Below are positions 10,457 through 55,638 of a DNA stretch of 64,000 nucleotides, piece after piece. This stretch comes from Candidatus Nomurabacteria bacterium. GTDB lineage: Bacteria > Patescibacteriota > Minisyncoccia > Phycocordibacterales > UBA9973. Positions within the stretch are counted from its first letter, which is position 1; every line of letters begins with the position of its first letter. The notes under the pieces are model-generated. The model did not search any database. It saw only the letters and a list, made by a program, of their open reading frames with translations, and was not told where the DNA came from. Location of the stretch: assembly GCA_963832025.1 (NCBI GenBank), contig CAWHSF010000003.1, forward strand, positions 143,665-207,664, in the 5' to 3' direction. A program made the position numbers and the translations under genes.

Positions 10457-12481
10457 ATGAGTAACTTTTTATTGTTTGCAATGTTGAGTGCGGTGATAGC
10501 TATCGTTTACGGTTTATTTTTAGCGAAAACAATATTAAAAAAGAGCGCCGGTAATGCTCGTATGCAAGAAATCGCCAAAGCGATTCAAGAAGGCGCGAGT
10601 GCTTATTTAAATAAACAATATAAAACTATCGGCATGATTGCGGTAGTTCTTTTTTTTATCATCGGCTCGGTGCCAAAACTCGGCTGGACGATGGCTTGTG
10701 GATTTTTAGTTGGAGCAGTCTTTTCTGCTTTGGCTGGATACATCGGTATGAATGTTTCCGTTCGAGCAAATGTTCGCACCACCGAAGCCGCTCGCGGTGG
10801 AATCAATGAAGCTCTTTCTCTCGCTTTCAAGGGTGGCACAGTTACCGGACTTTTAGTCGTTGGCCTGGCTCTGCTTGGAGTAACCGTTTTTTATGCAATT
10901 ACCAAAGATGTGACAGCCCTTGTCGGACTTGGTTTTGGCGCTTCGCTCATCTCGGTTTTTGCCAGACTGGGTGGAGGAATTTTTACTAAAGCAGCGGATG
11001 TCGGCGCGGACCTCGTGGGAAAACTCGAAGCTGGAATTCCGGAAGATGATCCTAGAAATCCAGGGGTGATTGCGGACAATGTCGGAGACAACGTCGGAGA
11101 CTGTGCAGGAATGGCCGCTGACTTGTTTGAAACTTATGCGGTCACTTCCGTCGCCACAATGCTCTTGGGCTCACTTATTTTTGCCGGTTTTCAAAATGCA
11201 CTTGTCTACCCTCTCGTGATTGGTGGTATTGCAATTTTTGCATCCATCATCGGAACTTGGTTTGTTCGATTGAGTAAAAAAGGGAATCAGTCAGACAACA
11301 TCATGGGAGCTTTATATAAAGGACTAATCGCTGCTGGAGTAATCGCTGCTATAGCATTCTATCCTGTTACAAAACTATTGATGTCAGGCAACGGCAGATA
11401 CTCTGTAATGAATTTATTCATCTGCTCTCTGGTTGGTCTTTTTGTCACCGGAGCTCTCGTCGTAATCACCGAATATTTTACTTCTACAAAATATTCTCCT
11501 GTTAAATCCATTGCAAAGGCATCCGTCTCCGGACACGGAACAAATGTGATTCAAGGATTAGCTGTTTCCATGAAATCTACCGCGTTGCCATTAATCACGA
11601 TTGTTCTAGGGATCATCATAAGTTATTACTACGGCGGACTTTACGGTATTGCTGTCGCTGCCATGTCCATGCTTTCTATGACCGGTATTGTTGTGGCAAT
11701 TGATGCATATGGTCCAATTACCGATAACGCCGGAGGAATTGCCGAAATGGCTGAACTTCCAAAGGAAGTTCGTGATGTGACTGATCCACTCGATGCTGTC
11801 GGTAATACCACTAAAGCTGTTACTAAAGGTTATGCAATCGGTTCCGCAGGACTCGCATCTCTCGTGCTCTTTGCTTCTTACACCGAAGAAATTGTAAAAG
11901 CTGGAAAAAGTATTTCCTTTGATTTAAGTAATCCTTATGTAATTGTCGGTCTCTTCTTGGGTGGGTTATTACCATATTATTTCGGCGCACTCTGCATGGA
12001 AGCTGTCGGAAAAACTGCCGGCAAAGTAGTGGAAGAAATTCGCCGACAGTTTAGAGAAATAAAAGGAATCATGGAAGGTAGCGCAAAACCAGATTATGCA
12101 AAAGCTGTCTCCATTATCACAGGTGAAGCGATACACCAAATGATTCTGCCTGCATTGATTCCCGTTCTTGCGCCAATTTTAGTAATTTTAATTTTCGGAA
12201 AAACTAACGGTTTAATAGTTTTGGGTGGATTGTTGGTTGGTTCCATTATCACCGGACTATTCGTCGCAATCTCCATGACTTCCGGTGGAGGTGCTTGGGA
12301 TAATGCAAAAAAATATATTGAACAAGGAAATTTTGGCGGCAAAGGCAGTGAAGCGCACAAGGCCGCAGTCACCGGAGACACCGTGGGTGACCCCTACAAA
12401 GACACCGCCGGTCCGGCCATCAACCCGATGATTAAAATCTTGAACATCGTGGCCTTGCTTTTAGTCATCTTCTTAATCTAA
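10457..12481 (+). CDS. hppA: membrane-bound ion-translocating pyrophosphatase
   Basis: 674 aa polytopic. Motifs [18 protein letters not shown] and [17 protein letters not shown]. Confidence 0.9.
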
Positions 12482-12500
12482 ATAAAAATTGTCGAAGGTG

Positions 12501-12616
12501 TAGTTTTTATGAAACTTTGTGCAGGTCATTCGACTCTGAGAGTCTCAGACTCGATGAGCGGGTAGCCGAGCAAAGCAAAAATTCAGCAGAATTTTATGCG
12601 TGTTGAATAAAAACTA
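12501..12616. repeat. family-B palindromic element, 116 bp (inverted twin at 54417-54532)
   Basis: The reverse complement matches 54417-54532 at 114/116 positions. Core gcgggtagccgagca, outer arms tagtttttatgaaac / gttgaataaaaacta. Confidence 0.9.
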
Positions 12617-12646
12617 TACCGAGAAAGATTTTTATTTAAACAACAT

Positions 12647-13741
12647 ATGCAAATAAAAATAACAAAATTACCAAAAAGTGAAATAGAAATTGAAGGAGAG
12701 CTGGAAGCAGATATTTTTGAGACTTATTTTTCCAAAGCGGTAAAAAGAATCGGAGAAACAATAAAAATTGATGGCTTTCGCCCTGGAAAAATTCCAGAAA
12801 GCGTTTTGCTTTCCAAAGTCCCAGAATCTCAAATCTTAGAAGAGATGGCAGAGCTCGCTTTGAATGAACACTATCCTAAAATTATTGATGAAAATAAAAT
12901 TGACGCAATCAGTCGTCCGGAAATTTCTATCCTAAAACTAGCTAGAAAAAACCCGCTCGGTTTTAAAATCAAAACCGCAGTAATACCGGAGATGAAACTT
13001 CCTGACTACAAAAAAATTGCCAAGGAAATAATTTCTAAAATTACCGACGAAGAAAAAAATGTCGCAGTCACGGATGAAGATTTAGAAAATACTATAATGG
13101 ATATACGAAAATCTCGCGCTCCAAAAATACATATGGCAGAAGTGGCAGTCCAGACGTCCGACGTTAAAGATGCCCCAACGTCGGACGTCGAGAATACCGA
13201 AATCAAAACAGAAACCAAAGAAGAACTTCCCGAATTCAATGATGAATTTGTGCAGGCGCTCGGACCTTTTAAAGATGTTAAGGACTTTAAAGAAAAATTA
13301 AAGGAAAATCTTAAACTGGAAAAAGAAAATGCTCAAAAAGAAAAAACCAGAATAAAAATAATTGAAAAAATAATTGAGGAGAGCGCAATAGAGACGCCTG
13401 AAATTTTAATTGAAGTTGAGCTAGATAAAATTTTATATCGAATGGAATCAGATATTACCCAGATGGGTCTCAAGTTTGAAGATTATTTAAAACATCTTAA
13501 TAAAACAATTGATGATTTGAGAAAAGAATTTCGCGGAGATGCTGAGAAAAAAGCGAAACTTGCCCTTGTGTTAAATGAAATAGCAAAAGAGGAAAAAATT
13601 ACTGCCGATCCCGAACAAGTTGCACGCGAAGTCGCTGCCATTTTGGAACATTACAAGGAAGCGGACCCGGAACGCGCAGCAATGCACGCCGAGAACGTGC
13701 TCACCAACGAAAAAATCTTTCAGTTTTTGGAAAATCAATAA
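12647..13741 (+). CDS. tig: trigger factor
   Basis: N-terminal GFRPGKIP motif and overall TF architecture. PPIase region short or divergent. Confidence 0.8.
   Translation: MQIKITKLPKSEIEIEGELEADIFETYFSKAVKRIGETIKIDGFRPGKIPESVLLSKVPESQILEEMAELALNEHYPKIIDENKIDAISRPEISILKLARKNPLGFKIKTAVIPEMKLPDYKKIAKEIISKITDEEKNVAVTDEDLENTIMDIRKSRAPKIHMAEVAVQTSDVKDAPTSDVENTEIKTETKEELPEFNDEFVQALGPFKDVKDFKEKLKENLKLEKENAQKEKTRIKIIEKIIEESAIETPEILIEVELDKILYRMESDITQMGLKFEDYLKHLNKTIDDLRKEFRGDAEKKAKLALVLNEIAKEEKITADPEQVAREVAAILEHYKEADPERAAMHAENVLTNEKIFQFLENQ
13153..13189. repeat. family-A-like hairpin inside tig coding sequence
   Basis: Perfect 13-bp arms gacgtccgacgtt / aacgtcggacgtc, 11-nt loop. Translated as TSDVKDAPTSDV. 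Confidence 0.8.
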
Positions 13742-29810: not shown

Positions 29811-29856
29811 TCCAGACGTTGGACGTCTGTGTTCTTACAGACGTCCAACGTCTGGA
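29811..29856. repeat. family-A nested palindrome
   Basis: Arms tccagacgttggacgtctg / cagacgtccaacgtctgga (19 bp, 8-nt loop). Each arm is itself palindromic (cagacgt tgg acgtctg). Confidence 0.9.
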
Positions 29857-29871
29857 ATTCTGTCGTTTATT

Positions 29872-32542: not shown

Positions 32543-32604
32543 CCTCCAGACGTCCAACGTCTGGAGGAGATGTTGGACACCTGCTTTGCAGATGTCCAAC
32601 ATCT
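32543..32604. repeat. two adjacent family-A hairpins upstream of metK
   Basis: cctccagacgt cca acgtctggagg (32543-32567). agatgttggaca ... tgtccaacatct (32568-32604); the latter is an inverted relative of 43673-43709. Confidence 0.9.
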
Positions 32605-32622
32605 AGTGTTATACTCAAAACT

Positions 32623-37416: not shown

Positions 37417-37450
37417 ATATATATTGTAGCAGATTTTTAAACTTGTTGCA

Positions 37451-37543
37451 GGCGTGCTTTTTAGAAAGCCTTGCGTAGGCGGACGCGCCGAGCAGTTCGC
37501 TGGCGTAGCAACGCCAGATAGATTGCTTTATAAAAAGCACGCC
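37451..37543. repeat. family-B palindromic element (diverged copy)
   Basis: Outer arms ggcgtgctttttagaaagc / gctttataaaaagcacgcc, core ccttgcgtaggcgg..gccgagcagttcgc, inner hairpin ctggcgt agca acgccag. Confidence 0.85.
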
Positions 37544-37568
37544 AAGAAAGAGTTTATAAATCTTCCTC

Positions 37569-37890: not shown

Positions 37891-37980
37891 ATTGTTGTTT
37901 TAGAAAGCCTTGCGCAGGCGGGTAGCCGAGCAGTTCGCTCCGCAAGCTTGCGGAGATAGATTGCTTTATAAAATAACAAT
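37891..37980. repeat. family-B palindromic element (diverged copy)
   Basis: Arms attgttgttttagaaagc / gctttataaaataacaat, core ccttgcgcaggcgggtagccgagcagttcgc, inner perfect palindrome ctccgcaagcttgcggag. Confidence 0.85.
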
Positions 37981-39814: not shown

Positions 39815-39933
39815 AAGCTTTGTGAATTATAATTTTTAAGAGACTTTGCGCAGGCGGGTAGCCGAGCAGGAACAAATTTTCAACAGAAAATTATGTGTGT
39901 CGATTAAAAATTGATAATTCATGAAGCTTTGTG
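39814..39933. mobile_element. family-B MITE-like element with terminal inverted repeats and an 11-bp flanking direct repeat
   Basis: The direct repeat gaagctttgtg at 39814-39824 and 39923-39933 flanks TIRs gaattataatttttaagagac / gtcgattaaaaattgataattc and the core gcgcaggcgggtagccgagca. Confidence 0.7.
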
Positions 39934-43667: not shown

Positions 43668-43672
43668 CAACC

Positions 43673-43709
43673 AGACGTTGGACATCTGCAAAGCAGGTGT
43701 CCAACGTCT
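43673..43709. repeat. family-A hairpin just after the Cys-rich gene stop
   Basis: agacgttggaca tctgcaaagcagg tgtccaacgtct. The loop is the reverse complement of the 32580-32592 loop. Confidence 0.9.
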
Positions 43710-43713
43710 CAAA

Positions 43714-45360
43714 TTAGTTTACTCCGTGTTTTTGGTGAAGTTTGGCAACTTCTTCTTCCTCAAGCTCTTCTTTTTTTTCTTTCCCTCGCTCGCCGAGAGT
43801 TTTTAGCTCATCGTCTCCGAGCATATTTAGAGATTTTACCAAGTGCTGAAAGATGTTCTACGGTATTTTTCTCTGGCGCATCCAAAACTTCTTCAAGTAA
43901 AGCGTGTAAAATCCATCCCATGCGTGGTCCAGGCGTAATTCCGAGTTCTTTTATCATAAATTCTCCATTTATTTTCAATTGTCCGACAGAAATTGGGTCG
44001 CGAAGTGCTTCTTCGATCATTGCAAAATATTTTCGCAATCGATAGGTGCTTCTTTTTTCTTCATCCCCACCCTGTCACACTCACGGACATTCATCAGAGC
44101 CCAAATATTTTCTTTTCCGACTTTGGCAATAATTCTTCGCACAGCGGAAAGCGTAATCAGTTCTGTATCGGAAAAAAACATATGATTATGAACAAGTTTT
44201 TCCACCAACTCAATTTCTTTTTTGGGAAATTTTAATCTCTCCATTATTTTTTTTGTCATCCGCGCACCGATAACTTCATGACCGTAAAAAGTATATTGCT
44301 TTTTTGGCTGTCGAGATGTAGGAGAATTCTGCTGGCGGAAGGTTCCGGCCGAAGGCTGGAGAAAAGCCGAAGAATTTTTCTGCATCTCGACAGCCTCACG
44401 TCTACTTCTTGGCTTTCCAATATCATGAAAAAGTGCTGCGAGCCTTATTTCCAAAGGCCAATTTTTGTCTGCTGCATGTTGCACCGCGTGTAATAAATGA
44501 TTCCAAACATCATAAATATGTTCCCCCGATTGTTCGCAATTTATTCCCTCTTCCAATTCCGGAATTATATTTTTTAGCAAACCAAATTTTTGCAACATCA
44601 AAATTCCACTCGCAGGATTTTTTGATAAAATTATTTTTTCAAATTCATCACGAATTCTTTCTTCCGATATTTTTTTTATTAATTCAGAATTTTTTAAAAT
44701 ACTTTCCATTGTTTCATACGACACAGAAAAATCTAGTTGGCAAGCAAAGCGCACAGCTCGCAACATACGTAGTGCATCTTCTTTAAATCTATCATCTGGA
44801 TTTCCTACCGCTCTAATGGTTTTGTTTTCAATGTCCTTTATCCCGTTATATAAATCTACAATATGTCTTTTATCTTGTCCTTTATACTTGCCTGCCAAAG
44901 CTTTAGCGTCGGCAGGTCCAAAGCCATCGCATTAACTGTGAAATCACGTCTTTTAAGATCATCTTCAAGCTTATCACTGAAAATTACTTCATCTGGATGC
45001 CTAAAATCAGTATATTTTGTTTCAATTCTATAAGGAGTGACTTCAATGATCATATATTCTGATGTTTCACGAGAAACATCTTCAATTTGTGTTACATGTG
45101 GAACATCAGTCTGTTTAGGCAGGCACAACTCCAACAGTTCCAAAGTTATTTTCATATATAGTTTTTTCAAATAAATCAATAATTTGTTCTGGCTTAGCAT
45201 CAGTGGTAACATCCCAATCCTTTGGCTCTCTACCATTAACAAGATCACGAACACATCCACCGACTAGGTACGCCTCAAAACCAGCTTCTTCTAATCTATC
45301 TGTTACTTGTGAAACTTCTTTGGGGATTTTCGATATTAAATTTTTTACGTCTTTTTCCAC
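43714..45360 (-). pseudogene. cca: CCA-adding tRNA nucleotidyltransferase with HD domain; frame broken about 4 times (error versus pseudogene unresolved)
   Basis: Segments [20 protein letters not shown]..., [11 protein letters not shown], ...RFKEDALRMLRAVRFACQL, LAALFHDIGKP and the C-terminal tail lie in different frames. Breaks are near 45120, 44930, the T6 run at 44052-44057 and the T4 run at 43834-43837. The GTG start at 45360 is tentative. Confidence 0.75.
44306..44395. repeat. family-B-like element, exactly 90 nt, in frame inside cca
   Basis: Perfect 13-bp terminal inverted repeats ggctgtcgagatg / catctcgacagcc. Interior has gaattctgctg and gccgaag. Encodes AVEMQKNSSAFLQPSAGTFRQQNSPTSRQP. 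Confidence 0.8.
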
Positions 45361-45372
45361 TTTGGAAATATG

Positions 45373-45443
45373 TGCGGCTAGGGAGAATCGAACTCCCGTC
45401 TCATCCTTGGCAAGGACGTGTTCTACCACTAAACCATAACCGC
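45373..45443 (-). tRNA. tRNA-Gly (GCC)
   Basis: GCGGTTA acceptor, anticodon loop TTGCCAA, GTTCGATTC T-loop. No encoded CCA. Confidence 0.85.
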
Positions 45444-45562: not shown

Positions 45563-45634
45563 GCACCCGTAGTGAAATGGATATCACAACAGTCTTCGGA
45601 ACTGTCGTTGGGGGTTCGAATCCCTCCGGGTGCA
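45563..45634 (+). tRNA. tRNA-Arg (TCG)
   Basis: GCACCCG acceptor, anticodon loop CTTCGGA, GGTTCGAATCC T-arm. Extended -10 promoter TGtATAAT at 45545-45552. No encoded CCA. Confidence 0.85.
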
Positions 45635-45901
45635 CAAAAGATCAACAATCAGCTGTCCTTGATGCTTTAGCTTTGTTTATAAGGATTTTTGTTAAAAATG
45701 TGGATAACTATGTTAGTAATGTTTATAAAGGACACAATAAATTTCTGTCTTTAAGGCACTTTTTTTCAAAATATCATTATAAAATAAGGATATTATGTTA
45801 AAAGACACCTAATTATTGATTTTTGTTTCATGTGAAACAAAAATGAATAATGTTATTTATGAAACGTTAAAAAATCAGTATAAATAAGCCTACTTTCAAT
45901 T

Positions 45902-46291
45902 ATGCCTAAAGTATTTACATCAGAAAAACAAAAAATAGGAGAACTTGGAGAAAACATAGCAGTCAAATTTCTCACGAAAAAAGGTTTTTTTATATCAGAG
46001 AGAAATTATACTAAAAAATGGGGTGAGATAGATATTATAGCTGAGAAAAATAATAAGTTATATTTTATAGAAGTAAAATCTTGTTAACATATGTCCAAAC
46101 CTCATAACTATCGACCGGAAGACAACATGCACCCATGGAAATTAAAAAGACTCTCAAGGACAATCCAAACATATCTTTTATCTAAAAACGTACCGGATGA
46201 AAAAGAGTGGCAAATGGATTTATTGCTAGTTTTTCTTGATATAAAAAACAAAAAGGCAAAAATAAAAGTAGTCAGTGATATTATACTGTGA
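45902..46291 (+). pseudogene. yraN: YraN/UPF0102-family endonuclease-like protein interrupted by an in-frame TAA
   Basis: WGEIDIIAEKNNKLYFIEVKSC-TAA-HMSKPHNYRPEDNMHPWKLKRL. Both tracked ORFs are in the same frame; the stop is at 46085-46087. Confidence 0.65.
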
Positions 46292-46315
46292 ATATGACTA
46301 GCGCTATTATTCTAG

Positions 46316-46386
46316 TGCGGGATGGGAGAATCGAACTCCCAACCTCAGTTTGGAAAACTGACGTTTTACCATTAAACTAATCCCGC
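46316..46386 (-). tRNA. tRNA-Gly (TCC)
   Basis: GCGGGAT acceptor, anticodon loop TTTCCAA, GTTCGATTC T-loop. No encoded CCA. Confidence 0.85.
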
Positions 46387-46416
46387 AATGTTAAAAATCC
46401 TGAATTTACTGAAGGG

Positions 46417-46487
46417 TCGGGCTGCTGGGAGTCGAACCCAGCCTAAATGCTCCCAAAGCACTTGTACAACCGATATACTACAGCCCG
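46417..46487 (-). tRNA. tRNA-Pro (TGG)
   Basis: CGGGCTG acceptor, anticodon loop TTTGGGA with G37, GGTTCGACTCC T-arm. No encoded CCA. Confidence 0.8.
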
Positions 46488-52267: not shown

Positions 52268-54391
52268 GTGACAGATGAGACAAAACATTTGGAAGGATTA
52301 AACCCTGAGCAAAAAGAGGCGGCGCTTCATATGAAGGGTCCGCTTCTTATTGTGGCTGGAGCGGGAGCGGGCAAGACTAAAACTATTACGCACAGAATTG
52401 TGAATCTGATAAAGAATGGCGTTCCTCCAGAAAAAATATTGGCGGTGACATTTACCAACAAGGCTGCGAAGGAAATGCGAGAGAGAGTCATTGCAGAAAT
52501 TAATAAAAACTTCGTCGGCAATGCCTTTTCTCAGGTCCTCGGTTCTCCGGGTCCCTATCCCGGCCAGACCATTCCAAAAGGCCTTGCCGACTTCGTAAAT
52601 AAGGCACCTTTTGTCAGCACCTTTCATTCTTTGGGAGTTTTTATTATAAAAGAAAACGCCAGATTGCTTGGGCTGACTAGGTATTTCACGATTTTGGATG
52701 AGGGAGATTCGACAGGAATGATAAAAGAAATAATGAAAAGCTTGGGGATAGACCCAAAACAATACGATCCGAAAAAAATAAAAAATATTATTTCGCGCGA
52801 GAAAGGAAAATTTGTTTATTTAACGGAATACACGGAAAGAGAAAATAGCAGTCTGGGAAGAATTGTAGCCCAAATCTGGAATTTATATGAGAAACAAAAA
52901 ATGAAGGAAAATTCTTTGGATTTTGACGATTTACTTTTAAAAGCGACAAAATTGTTAAAAGACAACAAGGAAATTAGGGAACTTTATCAAGATAAATGGG
53001 AATATATTCATATAGACGAATATCAAGACACCAATGAAGTGCAATATTTGATGACCAAATTGCTTTCCGAAAAATACAAAAATATTTGCGTGGTCGGGGA
53101 TGCAGACCAGAATATTTATTCTTGGCGCGGAGCAAATTTAAAAAATATTTTGAGTTTTGAGAAAGATTATCCGAATGCAAAAATAATTTTATTGGAGCAA
53201 AATTATCGCTCGACCAAAAATATTCTGGAAGCGGCAAATGAAATCATTAAAAAAAATAAATATAGACCGGATAAAAATTTATTTACAAAAAATGTTGTCG
53301 GAGAAAAAATCGGCTTGTATGAAGCATTGGATGAAACCGACGAAGCGGATTTTGTAGCGACAAAAATTTTAGAACTAATGGACAAGGGAAAAGATTTGTT
53401 TTTGCGGGGTCTCTCGCAGGCCGACGGGCCGAGAGGGAACGCTGTGCGAGCACGCACAGACAGTGACCTCGCAAAAACAGAATCTTTTTCTTTGTCCGAA
53501 ATCGCCCTGTTATATCGCGCAAATTTTCAATCGCGCGCGCTGGAAGAAGCCATGCTTCGCTACAACATTCCATACCAAGTTTTGGGTGTTAAGTTTTTTG
53601 AAAGAAAAGAAATCAAAGACACTTTGGCATATCTGCGCGCAGCGCTGAATCCGGAAAGTTTGTCCGACATAAAAAGAATAATAAATTTCCCGGCGCAGAG
53701 GCATCGGCAAGGTTACATTATTGAAAATATTTGCCGGAGAACGGGAAACTTTACCGATAAAAGTAAGAATTAAAGTTGATAATTTTTATACAACATTGGA
53801 AGAAATAAAAGAAAAAATATTAAAAGTGAAAAAACGAGCGAGGTAATAAAATTTGTAGTGAAAAAATCCGGCATTGAACAAGAATTGAGTAGCGGGGGAG
53901 ATGAAGATATTGAAAGATTGGAAAACATAAAAGAGCTTGCGACCTTGGCATTAAAATATGATAATTTAGAAAATGGAGCCGGTGTAGAAAAACTTTTAGA
54001 AGATGCATCATTGGCATCGGACCAAGATTCACTGATGATAAATCAAGAGAAGAAAGAAAGAAAAGAAGTAAATGCAGTGAAATTAATGACCGTGCATGCG
54101 TCAAAAGGCCTTGAATTCAAATACGTTTTTGTCACTGGTTTGGAAGATGGACTTTTCCCGCACGAAAGACAAAATGAAGGACAGAGTGGTGAAGACAGAG
54201 AAGAAGAACGCAGACTTTTTTACGTGGCGCTGACCAGAGCTAAAGAAAAATTATTTTTATCTTTAGCAAATTTCCGTACAATTTTCGGCTCACGCAACAT
54301 AAACGCACCATCAGAATTTATTAGCGACATACCGGCAGATTTATTAGAAAAAGAAGGAGAGGGGCACGGCATAAAAACAATTTATTTATGA
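52268..54391 (+). CDS. pcrA: UvrD/PcrA-family superfamily-1 DNA helicase; a 140-nt internal segment lies in a shifted frame
   Basis: AGAGAGKTKTITHR, TFTNKAAKEM, HIDEYQDTN, VGDADQNIYSWRGA, YRSTKNIL, LLYRANFQSR and VKLMTVHASKGLEF motifs. The motif RGIGKVTLLKIF is readable only in the +1 frame between about 53696 and 53834. Confidence 0.88.
53391..53487. repeat. family-B-like element in frame inside pcrA
   Basis: Arms agatttgtttttgcg / cgcaaaaacagaatct. Interior tcgcaggccgacgggccgagag resembles the core gcgcaggcgggtagccgagca. Encodes DLFLRGLSQADGPRGNAVRARTDSDLAKTESF. Confidence 0.7.
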
Positions 54392-54416
54392 TGGAGAACA
54401 AAATTCTTTCTTGGTA

Positions 54417-54532
54417 TAGTTTTTATTCAACACACATAAAATTCTGCTGAATTTTTGCTTTGCTCGGCTACCCGCTCATCGAGTCTGAGACTCTCAGAGT
54501 CGAATGACCTGCGCAAAGTTTCATAAAAACTA
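54417..54532. repeat. family-B palindromic element, 116 bp (inverted twin of 12501-12616)
   Basis: 114/116 identical to the reverse complement of 12501-12616. Confidence 0.9.
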
Positions 54533-54563
54533 CACCTGCAACGAATTTTGTTTAACAAAGAAG

Positions 54564-55508
54564 ATGCAACATAAAGCAAAAAAAACATTGGGGCAAAACT
54601 TTTTAAAATCGGAGCTAGCTCTGCGAAAGATTATTGAAGTCGGTGAAATAAAACCTGATGATATTATTTTAGAAATTGGTCCAGGAAAAGGTGCGCTGAC
54701 AAAAAAAATTTTAGAAAAAGCTGGAACGGTAATCGCTGTTGAAAAAGACCGTGAGTTGATAGAATTTTTGAAAACAAAATTTGCAAAAGAAATCACGACA
54801 AAAAAAATAATTTTGGTTGAAGATGATATTTTAAAATTTAATCTGGAGCAAGATATTCTCGAGCGAACCCTTGGTAGGAGCGACGGCGACGGACAGAGAA
54901 AATTTTCAGCAGAAAATTTTCGTGGTGAGTCCGAGAATATTTTGCTCCCGATTTCCTATAAAATTATTGCAAACATTCCATACAATATTACCGGCGCAAT
55001 CTTGAAAAGATTTTTGACAGAAAAAAACCAGCCGGAGCGCATGGTCTTGATGGTCCAAAACGAAGTGGCAAAAAGAATCGTGGCTTCCGACAAAAAAGAA
55101 AGTGTTCTTTCCATCTCCGTGAAAGCTTACGGTGAACCAAAAATGGTGATGAAGGTGCCAGCTCGATATTTTTCTCCAGAACCCAAGGTGGACTCCGCCA
55201 TAATTATTATAAAAAATATTTCTCGCAGACTTTTTGAAAAAAATAATACCTCACCCCAACCCTCTCCTTGCCAAGGAGAGGGGGGCAACGGGACTGTCCA
55301 AAATAAAATTTTGGACAGTCAGGCATTTGAAGAAAAATTTTGGGAAATAGTAAAAACCGGGTTTGCTCATAAGAGAAAAAAACTATCTGGCAACTTAAAA
55401 TCTCTCAAAAATTACGAAGTTTTAACAAAAAATGACTTTATGCAAACTTTGGGGAATAAAAGAGCGGAAGATTTGACGCTGGAGGATTGGATTTCGTTGA
55501 CTAAATAG
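54564..55508 (+). CDS. rsmA: 16S rRNA (adenine1518/1519-N6)-dimethyltransferase
   Basis: LGQNFL, EIGPGKGALT and ANIPYNIT motifs. Start trimmed to the ATG at 54564. Confidence 0.9.
   Translation: MQHKAKKTLGQNFLKSELALRKIIEVGEIKPDDIILEIGPGKGALTKKILEKAGTVIAVEKDRELIEFLKTKFAKEITTKKIILVEDDILKFNLEQDILERTLGRSDGDGQRKFSAENFRGESENILLPISYKIIANIPYNITGAILKRFLTEKNQPERMVLMVQNEVAKRIVASDKKESVLSISVKAYGEPKMVMKVPARYFSPEPKVDSAIIIIKNISRRLFEKNNTSPQPSPCQGEGGNGTVQNKILDSQAFEEKFWEIVKTGFAHKRKKLSGNLKSLKNYEVLTKNDFMQTLGNKRAEDLTLEDWISLTK
54853..54940. repeat. family-B-like element in frame inside rsmA/ksgA
   Basis: Terminal inverted repeats atattctcg / cgagaatat. Interior aaaattttcagcagaaaattttc matches the cagcagaa(a)tt signature of the intergenic copies. 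Encodes ILERTLGRSDGDGQRKFSAENFRGESENI. Confidence 0.7.
55248..55320. repeat. compound insertion in rsmA/ksgA: family-C palindrome plus a 13-bp-stem hairpin
   Basis: ccctctccttg c caaggagaggg (55260-55282) and gactgtccaaaat aaa attttggacagtc (55292-55320). Encodes TSPQPSPCQGEGGNGTVQNKILDSQ. Confidence 0.8.
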
Positions 55509-55510
55509 CT

Positions 55511-55556
55511 TCCAGACGTTGGACGTCTGTATCCGTCCAGACGTCCAACGTCTGGA
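55511..55556. repeat. family-A nested palindrome just after the ksgA stop
   Basis: Arms are identical to 29811-29856 (tccagacgttggacgtctg / cagacgtccaacgtctgga); the loop differs. Confidence 0.9.
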
Positions 55557-55638
55557 GATGCTCATAAACCTTGTTGGACTTGTTTTTTATTGATATAATC
55601 AAGCTATAAATAAATTATTTTGGTCAAAACACAAGAGG

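Follow-up and report, generated by a model that had tools for sequence, protein, structure and literature searches.

A palindrome read in frame within the cca gene of a Candidatus Nomurabacteria genome probably belongs to a dispersed family of hairpin repeats in Patescibacteria

The DNA analyzed here (the window) is a 64,000-nucleotide (nt) stretch of a Candidatus Nomurabacteria genome (contig CAWHSF010000003.1 of assembly GCA_963832025.1, positions 143,665 to 207,664 of the forward strand), and our subject is a long hairpin that lies in frame within its cca gene. The gene was identified as cca because the open reading frame (ORF) that bears the hairpin, 44017-44898, contains the Pfam domains PolyA_pol_RNAbd and HD and the PolyA_pol head and the tRNA_NucTran2_2 tail are found in the adjoining ORF fragments. 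In coordinates of the window, the gene and the hairpin are arranged as follows.

43717 to 45360, minus strand: whole cca gene, in five reading-frame segments with four frameshifts relative to orthologue P0005
44017 to 44898, minus strand: cca ORF fragment bearing the hairpin, with PolyA_pol_RNAbd and HD; the insert is residues ~169-198
44306 to 44395, minus strand: whole hairpin, 90 nt, in frame within cca, the sense strand encoding (E)AVEMQKNSSAFLQPSAGTFRQQNSPTSRQP
44306 to 44318: outer stem arm, downstream in gene sense, encoding ..TSRQP; site-specific, in no other copy
44383 to 44395: outer stem arm, upstream in gene sense, encoding (E)AVEM

The frame of cca changes near 45115-45130, 44898-44930, 44017-44040 and 43808-43840, the first of these changes lying outside any homopolymer, and the gene is otherwise free of in-frame stops. 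These frameshifts, like at least one in the uvrD gene of the window, are probably indel errors of the assembly, with gene decay as the other possibility. The intact orthologues P0002 and P0004 bear the same insert as the window cca.

The arm GGCTGTCGAGATG (44306-44318) is exactly reverse-complementary to CATCTCGACAGCC (44383-44395) and the pair bounds 90 nt, confirming the coordinates and complementarity given by the original prediction, which had reported a 90-nt segment with perfect 13-bp inverted repeats in cca. Its placement in frame after the HD motif was also borne out, in that an uninterrupted frame downstream of ...LAALFHDIGKPRSRRE yields AVEMQKNSSAFLQPSAGTFRQQNSPTSRQP, in the context ...FHDIGKPRSRRE-AVEMQKNSSAFLQPSAGTFRQQNSPTSRQP-KKQYTFYGHE. 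Once three mismatches are allowed, the arms reach 25 nt at 88% complementarity. The GC content of the hairpin is 0.53, compared to 0.39 in the window; its cca sense strand folds at -41 kcal/mol (z = -4.7 relative to shuffles), and in a 110-nt sliding fold it is the deepest minimum of the 64 kb (-60.9, compared to a mean of -21.2 and a standard deviation of 6.9). Per window, 0.32 perfect 13-bp inverted repeats with loops of up to 100 nt are expected from first-order Markov simulations, 19% of which contained at least one. Because a lone perfect 13-mer is only mildly unlikely, it is the extended stem, together with the family evidence described below, that makes the hairpin significant.

Comparison with orthologous proteins revealed that the segment is an insertion. 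A protein search returned thousands of Cca orthologues in Patescibacteria (Nomurabacteria, Paceibacterota, Parcubacteria and Minisyncoccia), of which we surveyed the best 120, at 71-80% identity. The linker from HDIGKP to YTFYGHE is 13 amino acids (aa) long in 44 of the 120 and 15 aa long in 22, compared to 38 aa in the window, and it is because most of these close orthologues have a 13-15-aa linker at that position that we regard the cca segment as inserted. Linkers of 20-57 aa occur in 21 of the 120, and these long linkers comprise at least eight unrelated insert types, only those of P0002 and P0004 being like the window insert. A homologous 30-aa segment lacking inverted repeats, which would have spoken against a palindromic element, was not seen among these orthologues, since the DNA of both P0002 (locus L001) and P0004 (locus L002) also has the hairpin, decayed in L002. 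For five insert-bearing orthologues (L001-L005) the DNA was inspected, and all five inserts are long hairpins (-38 to -48 kcal/mol) with a GC content above that of their own locus. The Cca linker is an insertion hotspot. In an AlphaFold model of the 293-aa fragment, built from a 52-sequence alignment, the insert has predicted local distance difference test scores of 52-56 and the flanking helices 95-98, and the model thus depicts the insert as a low-confidence excursion from a well-defined HD domain. A sequence search found no solved structure covering the HD part of Cca.

Searches beyond cca revealed that the interior of the hairpin recurs in many other genes. An interior-pattern scan, in which 23 core positions were fixed, found 13 loci in bacterial genomes (one genome per species) and 20 loci, including eight duplicates, in JGI/ENA metagenome contigs; addition of diverged copies by an nhmmer profile gave 40 distinct copies in about 20 assemblies. 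The family was found in Nomurabacteria/Paceibacteria-type genomes and metagenomes, and the pattern scan found no core copies in viral contigs. The profile matches the window core at 44319-44383 with E = 2e-20, and the ~57-nt core is shared at 80-95% identity across 11 gene families. One 14-kb locus, L034, holds four family copies. The original prediction had taken the 13-bp repeats to be the defining termini of the element; the unit shared between copies is instead the interior, ~44319-44383, and the outer 13 bp are unique to the cca site. The core of the window copy is organized as follows, plus strand throughout.

44319 to 44383, plus strand: conserved family core, common to 39 other copies; the "+" orientation of the family is antisense to cca
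44323 to 44330, plus strand: left subterminal repeat AGAATTCT, self-palindromic, with its partner AGAATTTTT at 44371-44379 (alignment columns 16-23 paired with 64-71)
44334 to 44368, plus strand: structured center of the core, with helices, internal loop and apical loop
44334-36 and 44366-68, plus strand: 3-bp helix GGC/GCC
44337-42, plus strand: invariant internal loop GGAAGG, facing AAAA at 44362-65
44343-50 and 44354-61, plus strand: apical helix TTCCGGCC/GGCTGGAG
44351-53, plus strand: GAA loop, with the palindrome center, 44352, on codon position 1

The recurrence of this core bears on whether the hairpin could be an artefact of sequencing or assembly, such as a chimeric or fold-back read or an error-prone assembly, for which the cca and uvrD frameshifts, suggestive of indel errors, might be cited. 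The same core was found in the same phase in independent JGI, ENA and NCBI assemblies, and the same cca site is filled in L001, L002, L011, L012, L015 and L027, making an artefact the least probable of the explanations that we considered.

Analysis of the host genes indicated that nearly all copies are embedded in coding sequence. ORFs of at least 150 aa contain 38 of the 40 copies, with the host frame open on both sides; the hosts identified by Pfam are LeuRS, PheT, UvrA, UvrC, LigA, TruB, HolB and Cca, together with MnmA (two sites), an RlmI-like methyltransferase and an FAD-linked oxidase (two sites). The palindrome center falls on codon position 1 in 37 of the 38 ORF copies, with the core antisense in 29 of these, which read KNSSAFL(H/Q)PS(G/A)GTFRQQNS, and sense in eight, which read (S/A)GGRFTPKAGGK(P/Q)KN. 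This single codon phase is not explained by stop codons, because three to five of the six frames typically run through the element without interruption. Copies are therefore read through, and one polar, Gly/Ser/Asn-rich peptide survives per orientation, the two surviving readings being those that interconvert when the core is flipped symmetrically. Copies are oriented both ways at the Cca site (window, L001, L002, L012 and L027 versus L011 and L015), at MnmA site 1 (L014 and L029 versus L019 and L023) and at MnmA site 2 (L024 versus L017, with homologous arms), and the interior of the L005 Cca insert is oriented opposite to that of the window relative to cca. Insert-free alleles exist for the TruB, methyltransferase, FAD oxidase and MnmA sites.

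The single phase also bears on the idea that the segment is an intervening sequence that is removed, either because the RNA is cut and rejoined at the foot of the hairpin or because translation bypasses it, leaving a protein without the 30 residues. The long stem does juxtapose the host junctions, as in bulge-helix-bulge introns or intervening sequences processed by RNase III. Removal would, however, free the frame, the phase and the stop codons, and yet all but one of the ORF copies keep one codon phase and an open frame through the element; excision at the stem base would moreover shift the frame, because hairpin lengths are not multiples of three. Decayed copies (that of L002, an old copy in L017 and the putative "QKNS" remnants mentioned below) stay in-frame coding sequence, and intein motifs are absent from the 30-aa peptide. 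Taken together, these observations render removal hardly credible.

Nested or tandem copies were observed in single loops of L012 (3851-4003, two copies in the Cca linker) and L019 (456-602, two copies at MnmA site 1), and in L017 a decayed, old copy lies next to a young one (285-344 and 770-830). A clade of Cca proteins with the 15-aa linker (the 22 of 120 noted above, among them P0054, P0062, P0068, P0076 and P0081) carries RR(F/W/Y)D.(T/S)KAGGKGK, which resembles the sense-orientation peptide of the element, GRFTPKAGGKPK. Judging from this resemblance, the 15-aa linker may be the trimmed and fixed remnant of an old insertion, and the short "QKNS" linkers of P0016, P0017, P0029, P0033 and P0044 may be remnants too. 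The LeuRS genes of L016 and L033 have an inserted NUDIX domain, and that of L033 also has a Ham1-like one; these large domain insertions are unrelated to the hairpins.

Alignment of the copies revealed a conserved secondary structure with a marked difference between the strands. The core runs from AGAATTCT through the 3-bp helix, the asymmetric internal loop and a 7-8-bp apical helix with a GAA loop to AGAATTYTT. In an ungapped alignment of 38 sequences the hairpin model pairs 93.3% of cells, compared to 67.5% in shuffled and 43-56% in slid controls, and two-sided changes occur at 28 of its 34 pairs. Double changes were found at 22 of the 23 pairs of outer-stem helix 1; the 3-bp helix occurs as GGC/GCC, CGG/CCG, CGC/GCG, CAG/CTG, CAT/ATG and GAC/GTC, and the apical helix covaries as well. 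The asymmetric internal loop, GGAAGG(T) versus G-N-AA-(A/T), is invariant, including in the copies found by nhmmer only. Inspection of this loop against the K-turn and sarcin-ricin motifs gave a clean fit to neither, and we claim no such identity. Non-Watson-Crick pairs on the "+" strand comprise 118 G·T and 24 A·C in total and 44 and 3, respectively, in the core (a constant T·G excluded). Folded as RNA, the "+" strand is the more stable in 36 of 38 copies, by a mean of 8.9 kcal/mol (-53.4 versus -33.1 for the window copy). The bias in wobble pairs and stability is a signature of single-stranded structure, in DNA or RNA, of one strand, the alternative being selection for a weaker mRNA hairpin. 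The strand so marked is, in most copies, the antisense strand of the host gene.

Such a structure could also be expected of a nucleic acid that the host itself uses and that selection maintains, for example an antisense small RNA, a protein-binding module of single-stranded DNA or RNA, or an mRNA hairpin tuning translation or decay. The covariation of helices around an invariant asymmetric loop, the restriction of wobbles to the one, more stable strand and the near-consensus state of the core across genes and genomes are all in accord with this idea, but the substrate of a mobilizing enzyme would show the same structural features. In ~78% of copies the structured strand is the antisense one and so lies outside the host mRNA. 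The copies are spread over 11 unrelated gene families at varied positions and in both orientations, with presence and absence varying among close relatives, and a scan of Rfam 15 with E up to 10 gave only generic hairpin models of the microRNA-precursor type at E > 1, far below gathering scores. We therefore consider a host function for the core unlikely.

In contrast to the core, the outer stem differs from site to site. The outermost 10-20 bp are different at each site and usually perfectly paired; in a comparison of the window with L001, L002 and L005 the outer stems were unrelated (GGCTGTCGAGATG, TTGGCAGAAGTTGTG, GGAGCTAGAGCAGT) while the interior was common, and only the subterminal AGAATTCT/AGAATTYTT is shared between copy ends. 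No direct repeats indicative of target-site duplication were found at the hairpin boundaries of 26 copies. In these 26 copies the hairpin is 76-104 nt long, with lengths modulo 3 distributed 10/5/11, and yet each insertion is in frame. The length of exactly 90 nt, or 30 codons, emphasized in the original prediction consequently describes the window copy and is no property of the family, and even in the window the 90 nt are not codon-aligned, starting at the third base of a GAG codon.

Comparison of filled and empty orthologous sites suggested where the additional stem sequence comes from. Filled sites exceed empty ones by only 45-66 nt at the TruB, methyltransferase, FAD oxidase and MnmA sites, while the hairpins measure 80-104 nt. 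The net gains are as follows.

TruB: +63 nt
Methyltransferase: +51 to 66 nt
FAD oxidase, site b: +63 nt
MnmA, site 2: +45 nt

On both sides of the TruB site, the outer 10 bp of the arms GGCAAATCAG/CTGATTTGCC coincide with codons homologous to the host flanks (ANQ versus LNQ, DLP versus EFP), and these flanks lack complementarity in the empty allele. The gene-upstream arm of L001 encodes LAE, matching the host linker consensus RRLAE; that of the window encodes (E)AV, which recurs in P0043 and P0072, two insert-free orthologues whose linker reads RREAVGAGKKKY. Deletion of the whole hairpin would leave a linker of 0-1 residues, below every orthologue. These observations point to the perfect 13-bp stem of the window being a site-specific extension over host codons and not a transposon end. 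A model in which one arm on a constant side is host-derived was rejected in favor of arms that coincide with host codons on either side, as the host-derived arm appears to be gene-upstream in Cca (window and L001), downstream at FAD oxidase site a and on both sides in TruB. The likeliest origin of the stem is hairpin-templated copying, by snap-back synthesis at insertion or by quasipalindrome template switching later, a process that would also give "compensatory" changes without selection.

If stems are built from local sequence, it might be asked whether anything moves at all, or whether hypervariable loops merely acquire palindromes through local template switching, the similarity between sites being convergent or compositional. 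Besides the site-specific outer stems, apparently built from local sequence, the many unrelated small palindromes in such loops are compatible with this proposal. Local template switching could not repeatedly create the same asymmetric sequence, and a ~57-nt core with a non-palindromic internal loop, 80-95% identical, recurs in 11 gene families and ~20 assemblies. The chance expectation of the search pattern is well under one match, and the family alignment also contradicts convergence, leaving very little probability for an origin without mobility.

We propose that the cca hairpin is one copy of a dispersed family of non-coding palindromic repeats of Paceibacteria/Nomurabacteria-type Patescibacteria that colonizes genes and persists where it is harmlessly translated, a reading to which we assign a probability of roughly 0.8. 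The mobile unit would be the conserved ~57-65-nt core, inserted at cca into a variable, probably surface-exposed linker right after the HDIGKP of the HD domain, where the ribosome would read through it and add ~25 polar, probably disordered residues (KNSSAFLQPSAGTFRQQNS). Selection would act as a filter, a center on codon position 1 leaving one benign peptide per orientation. The stem would most likely gain its extension, at the time of insertion or later, when one flank serves as template for the other in a hairpin or snap-back intermediate. The element may act as a single-stranded hairpin, of DNA or RNA, formed by the strand antisense to cca, since only that strand has G·T wobbles, and it would be mobilized in trans by some enzyme or by template switching during replication. 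The direct support for this proposal consists of family membership, in-frame translation context, covariation, lack of target-site duplication, hotspot behavior and arms lying over host codons.

Several points weigh against this proposal. The window has a single family copy, no second one being found by blastn-short, a mismatch-tolerant pattern or the nhmmer profile (next best E = 0.14), so that the window gives no sign of activity in this genome, and the mobility mechanism is a deduction. Conservation of the core is partly a matter of ascertainment, as 23 positions were fixed by the search pattern, although the internal loop is still kept in copies found by nhmmer only. The host-derived arm is inconsistent between sites. 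Vertical inheritance from an old insertion could account for the copies at orthologous sites, the core diverging about as much as flanking coding DNA when the pattern-fixed positions are discounted. Because cca has four frameshifts in the assembly, translation of the window copy cannot be assumed, and insertion at cca is concluded from cross-species comparison of sequences in which the closest orthologue is 80% identical.

Other inserts in the window indicate that the cca element has company. The original prediction had grouped it with an insert in ksgA and with intergenic "family-B" elements (12501-12616 and 39825-39920). The 10-mer on which this grouping rests is at chance level (blastn-short E = 5.8), and GAATTCTGCTG occurs once in the window; the grouping is thus not supported. 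The ksgA insert at 54853-54940 (ksgA/rsmA ORF 54504-55508, plus strand) is not recovered by the profile of the cca family and belongs to a distinct one; it is nevertheless a genuine in-frame palindromic element, encoding TLGRSDGDGQRKFSAENFRGESENIL (DILERTLGRSDGDGQRKFSAENFRGESENILLP). Near-identical peptide and DNA were found in the Cca hotspot of P0107 (L003 1825-1968) and in uvrD and ksgA of L004, and this recurrence in cca, uvrD and ksgA of other loci shows independently that such elements move between genes. In all, cca, ksgA and uvrD of the window have five in-frame inserts of hairpin type. The second ksgA insert (55236-55337) is a GC-rich double hairpin in frame (NTSPQPSPCQGEGGNGTVQNKILDSQAF), for which the L004 orthologue is an empty site. 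In uvrD, an in-frame GC-rich hairpin insert lies at 53378-53503 (hairpin 53384-53492, -70 kcal/mol), where L004 has an element of the ksgA type, and another lies at 52508-52609 (-38 kcal/mol), which L004 lacks. This uvrD/pcrA-like gene (52268-54391) breaks off at 53773 and continues from 53858 in a different frame, its L004 orthologue being unbroken at 681 aa. At MnmA site 2 of L029 a CCAGACGTTGGACGTC palindrome is in frame (APDVGRRGNFDVQRLE), and the window has CCAGACGTTGGACGTC as intergenic terminator-like hairpins. That presumably exposed loops are hit repeatedly by unrelated palindromes suggests either that few positions are tolerant or that there is a preference for existing dyad symmetry.

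Further repeats and genes of the window are listed here for completeness.

12479-12636 and 54397-54554: a 158-nt element (family B) at 94% identity in opposite orientation, with inverted ends of ~35 nt; appears intergenic
37431-37563, 37898-37933 and 39834-39869: fragments related to family B
29811-29857, 55511-55557, 32545-32608, 43670-43710 and 13144-13198: perfect hairpins TCCAGACGTTGGACGTCTG...CAGACGTCCAACGTCTGGA, terminator-like, downstream of genes; this palindrome is the one in frame within mnmA of L029
4900-7620: long direct repeats, both tandem and dispersed, having a period of 225 nt (five copies, identity 62-98%), and others spaced by 335 nt; probably a repetitive surface protein gene
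45372-45443, same strand as cca: tRNA-Gly(GCC), directly upstream of cca
45563-46487: three further tRNAs

Comparison with published systems suggested that the closest counterparts are the Rickettsia palindromic elements (RPEs; Ogata et al. 2000 Science 290:347; reviewed in PMC2229807 and PMC10969869). RPEs are stem-loop repeats of 105-146 bp that lie in frame in 19 conserved genes and are tolerated by the proteins, with target-site duplication unknown (PMC2229807, PMC10969869). Like them, the present elements are short non-coding palindromic repeats that form a long stem-loop, are dispersed in a small AT-rich genome, sit in frame in conserved housekeeping genes and are presumably translated as an extra peptide that the protein tolerates; in both systems several families coexist with no transposase known and, for RPEs, no target-site duplication established. 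The present host belongs to another phylum, Patescibacteria, and we claim neither a sequence relationship nor membership in RPE-1 to RPE-10. The present core of ~57-65 nt and hairpin of 76-104 nt are also smaller than RPEs (PMC2229807). In addition, the present family is conserved at its center while its outer stem differs per site, occurs in both orientations at one site with strand-specific wobbles, shares protein loops that are hit repeatedly by different families, and has 38 of its 40 copies within genes. In its behavior the family thus matches RPEs, with a structured conserved center joined to site-specific stems, the use of both orientations in one phase, multi-family hotspots and strand-specific wobbles as distinguishing traits.

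Other known repeats resemble the family in part. MITEs (miniature transposable elements with inverted repeats; for example Correia/NEMIS, ERIC, RUP and Nezha) are defined by terminal inverted repeats that are conserved and match a parent insertion sequence, and by a target-site duplication, commonly TA; they are mostly intergenic. The present repeats share with MITEs a small, non-autonomous form with inverted termini, and open frames and in-frame fusion within genes are known for some MITEs (PMC2229807). They differ in that their termini are not conserved between copies, direct duplication is absent and nearly all copies are intragenic. Repetitive extragenic palindromes and the mosaics that they form (REP/BIME) lie, by definition, outside genes, carry a conserved 5' tetranucleotide and are associated with RAYT (TnpA-REP) and with single-strand transposition of the IS200/IS605 type. 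Short imperfect palindromes acting as single-stranded hairpins, a G·T-tolerant strand asymmetry and the lack of target-site duplication are common to these systems and the present family, whose copies are, unlike REPs, largely intragenic and endowed with site-specific stem extensions. The GC clusters of yeast mitochondria are GC-rich palindromic mobile elements of an AT-rich genome that are polymorphic among strains and occur in frame in VAR1. The present family resembles them as GC-rich palindromes in an AT-rich genome able to sit in frame in a protein gene, but GC clusters are organellar and eukaryotic, have other sequences and show flanking duplication at AT-rich targets. Finally, in quasipalindrome template-switch mutagenesis (the Ripley model) one hairpin arm is corrected or extended using the other as template. 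Stems that are perfect and specific to their site, with seemingly compensatory changes, would follow from it without selection, but it is a mutational process and not an element, and it leaves the spread of an asymmetric core to new genes unexplained. A full-text literature search found no relevant account in candidate phyla radiation (CPR) bacteria, Patescibacteria or Parcubacteria, which is not proof of absence from the literature.

More tentatively, and with considerably less confidence than for the proposal above, we suggest that the core might be the substrate of a not previously described single-strand, hairpin-based mobility system of CPR bacteria, preferentially entering spots in exposed loops that are already dyad-symmetric, in either orientation, or flipping there, and converting adjacent host codons into stem. 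Surface loops of Cca, aminoacyl-tRNA synthetases and repair proteins, all essential enzymes, might then be under continuous revision by several such families in minimal genomes. Stems made of host codons, hotspots common to unrelated families and the strand-specific signature may indicate a mobility mechanism different from that of MITEs.

CPR/Patescibacteria have tiny genomes and get by with a minimal complement of housekeeping enzymes. Were several hairpin families to sit in frame there, many of the "lineage-specific insertions" and low-complexity loops of CPR proteins would be parasitic DNA and not adaptations, with consequences for how genes are annotated, structures predicted, phylogenetic markers used and protein divergence estimated. 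Empty and filled polymorphisms could serve as strain markers in metagenomes. The family would also provide, beside Rickettsia, a second and much larger natural system in which to follow how proteins tolerate random peptide insertions and whether new loops arise from them.

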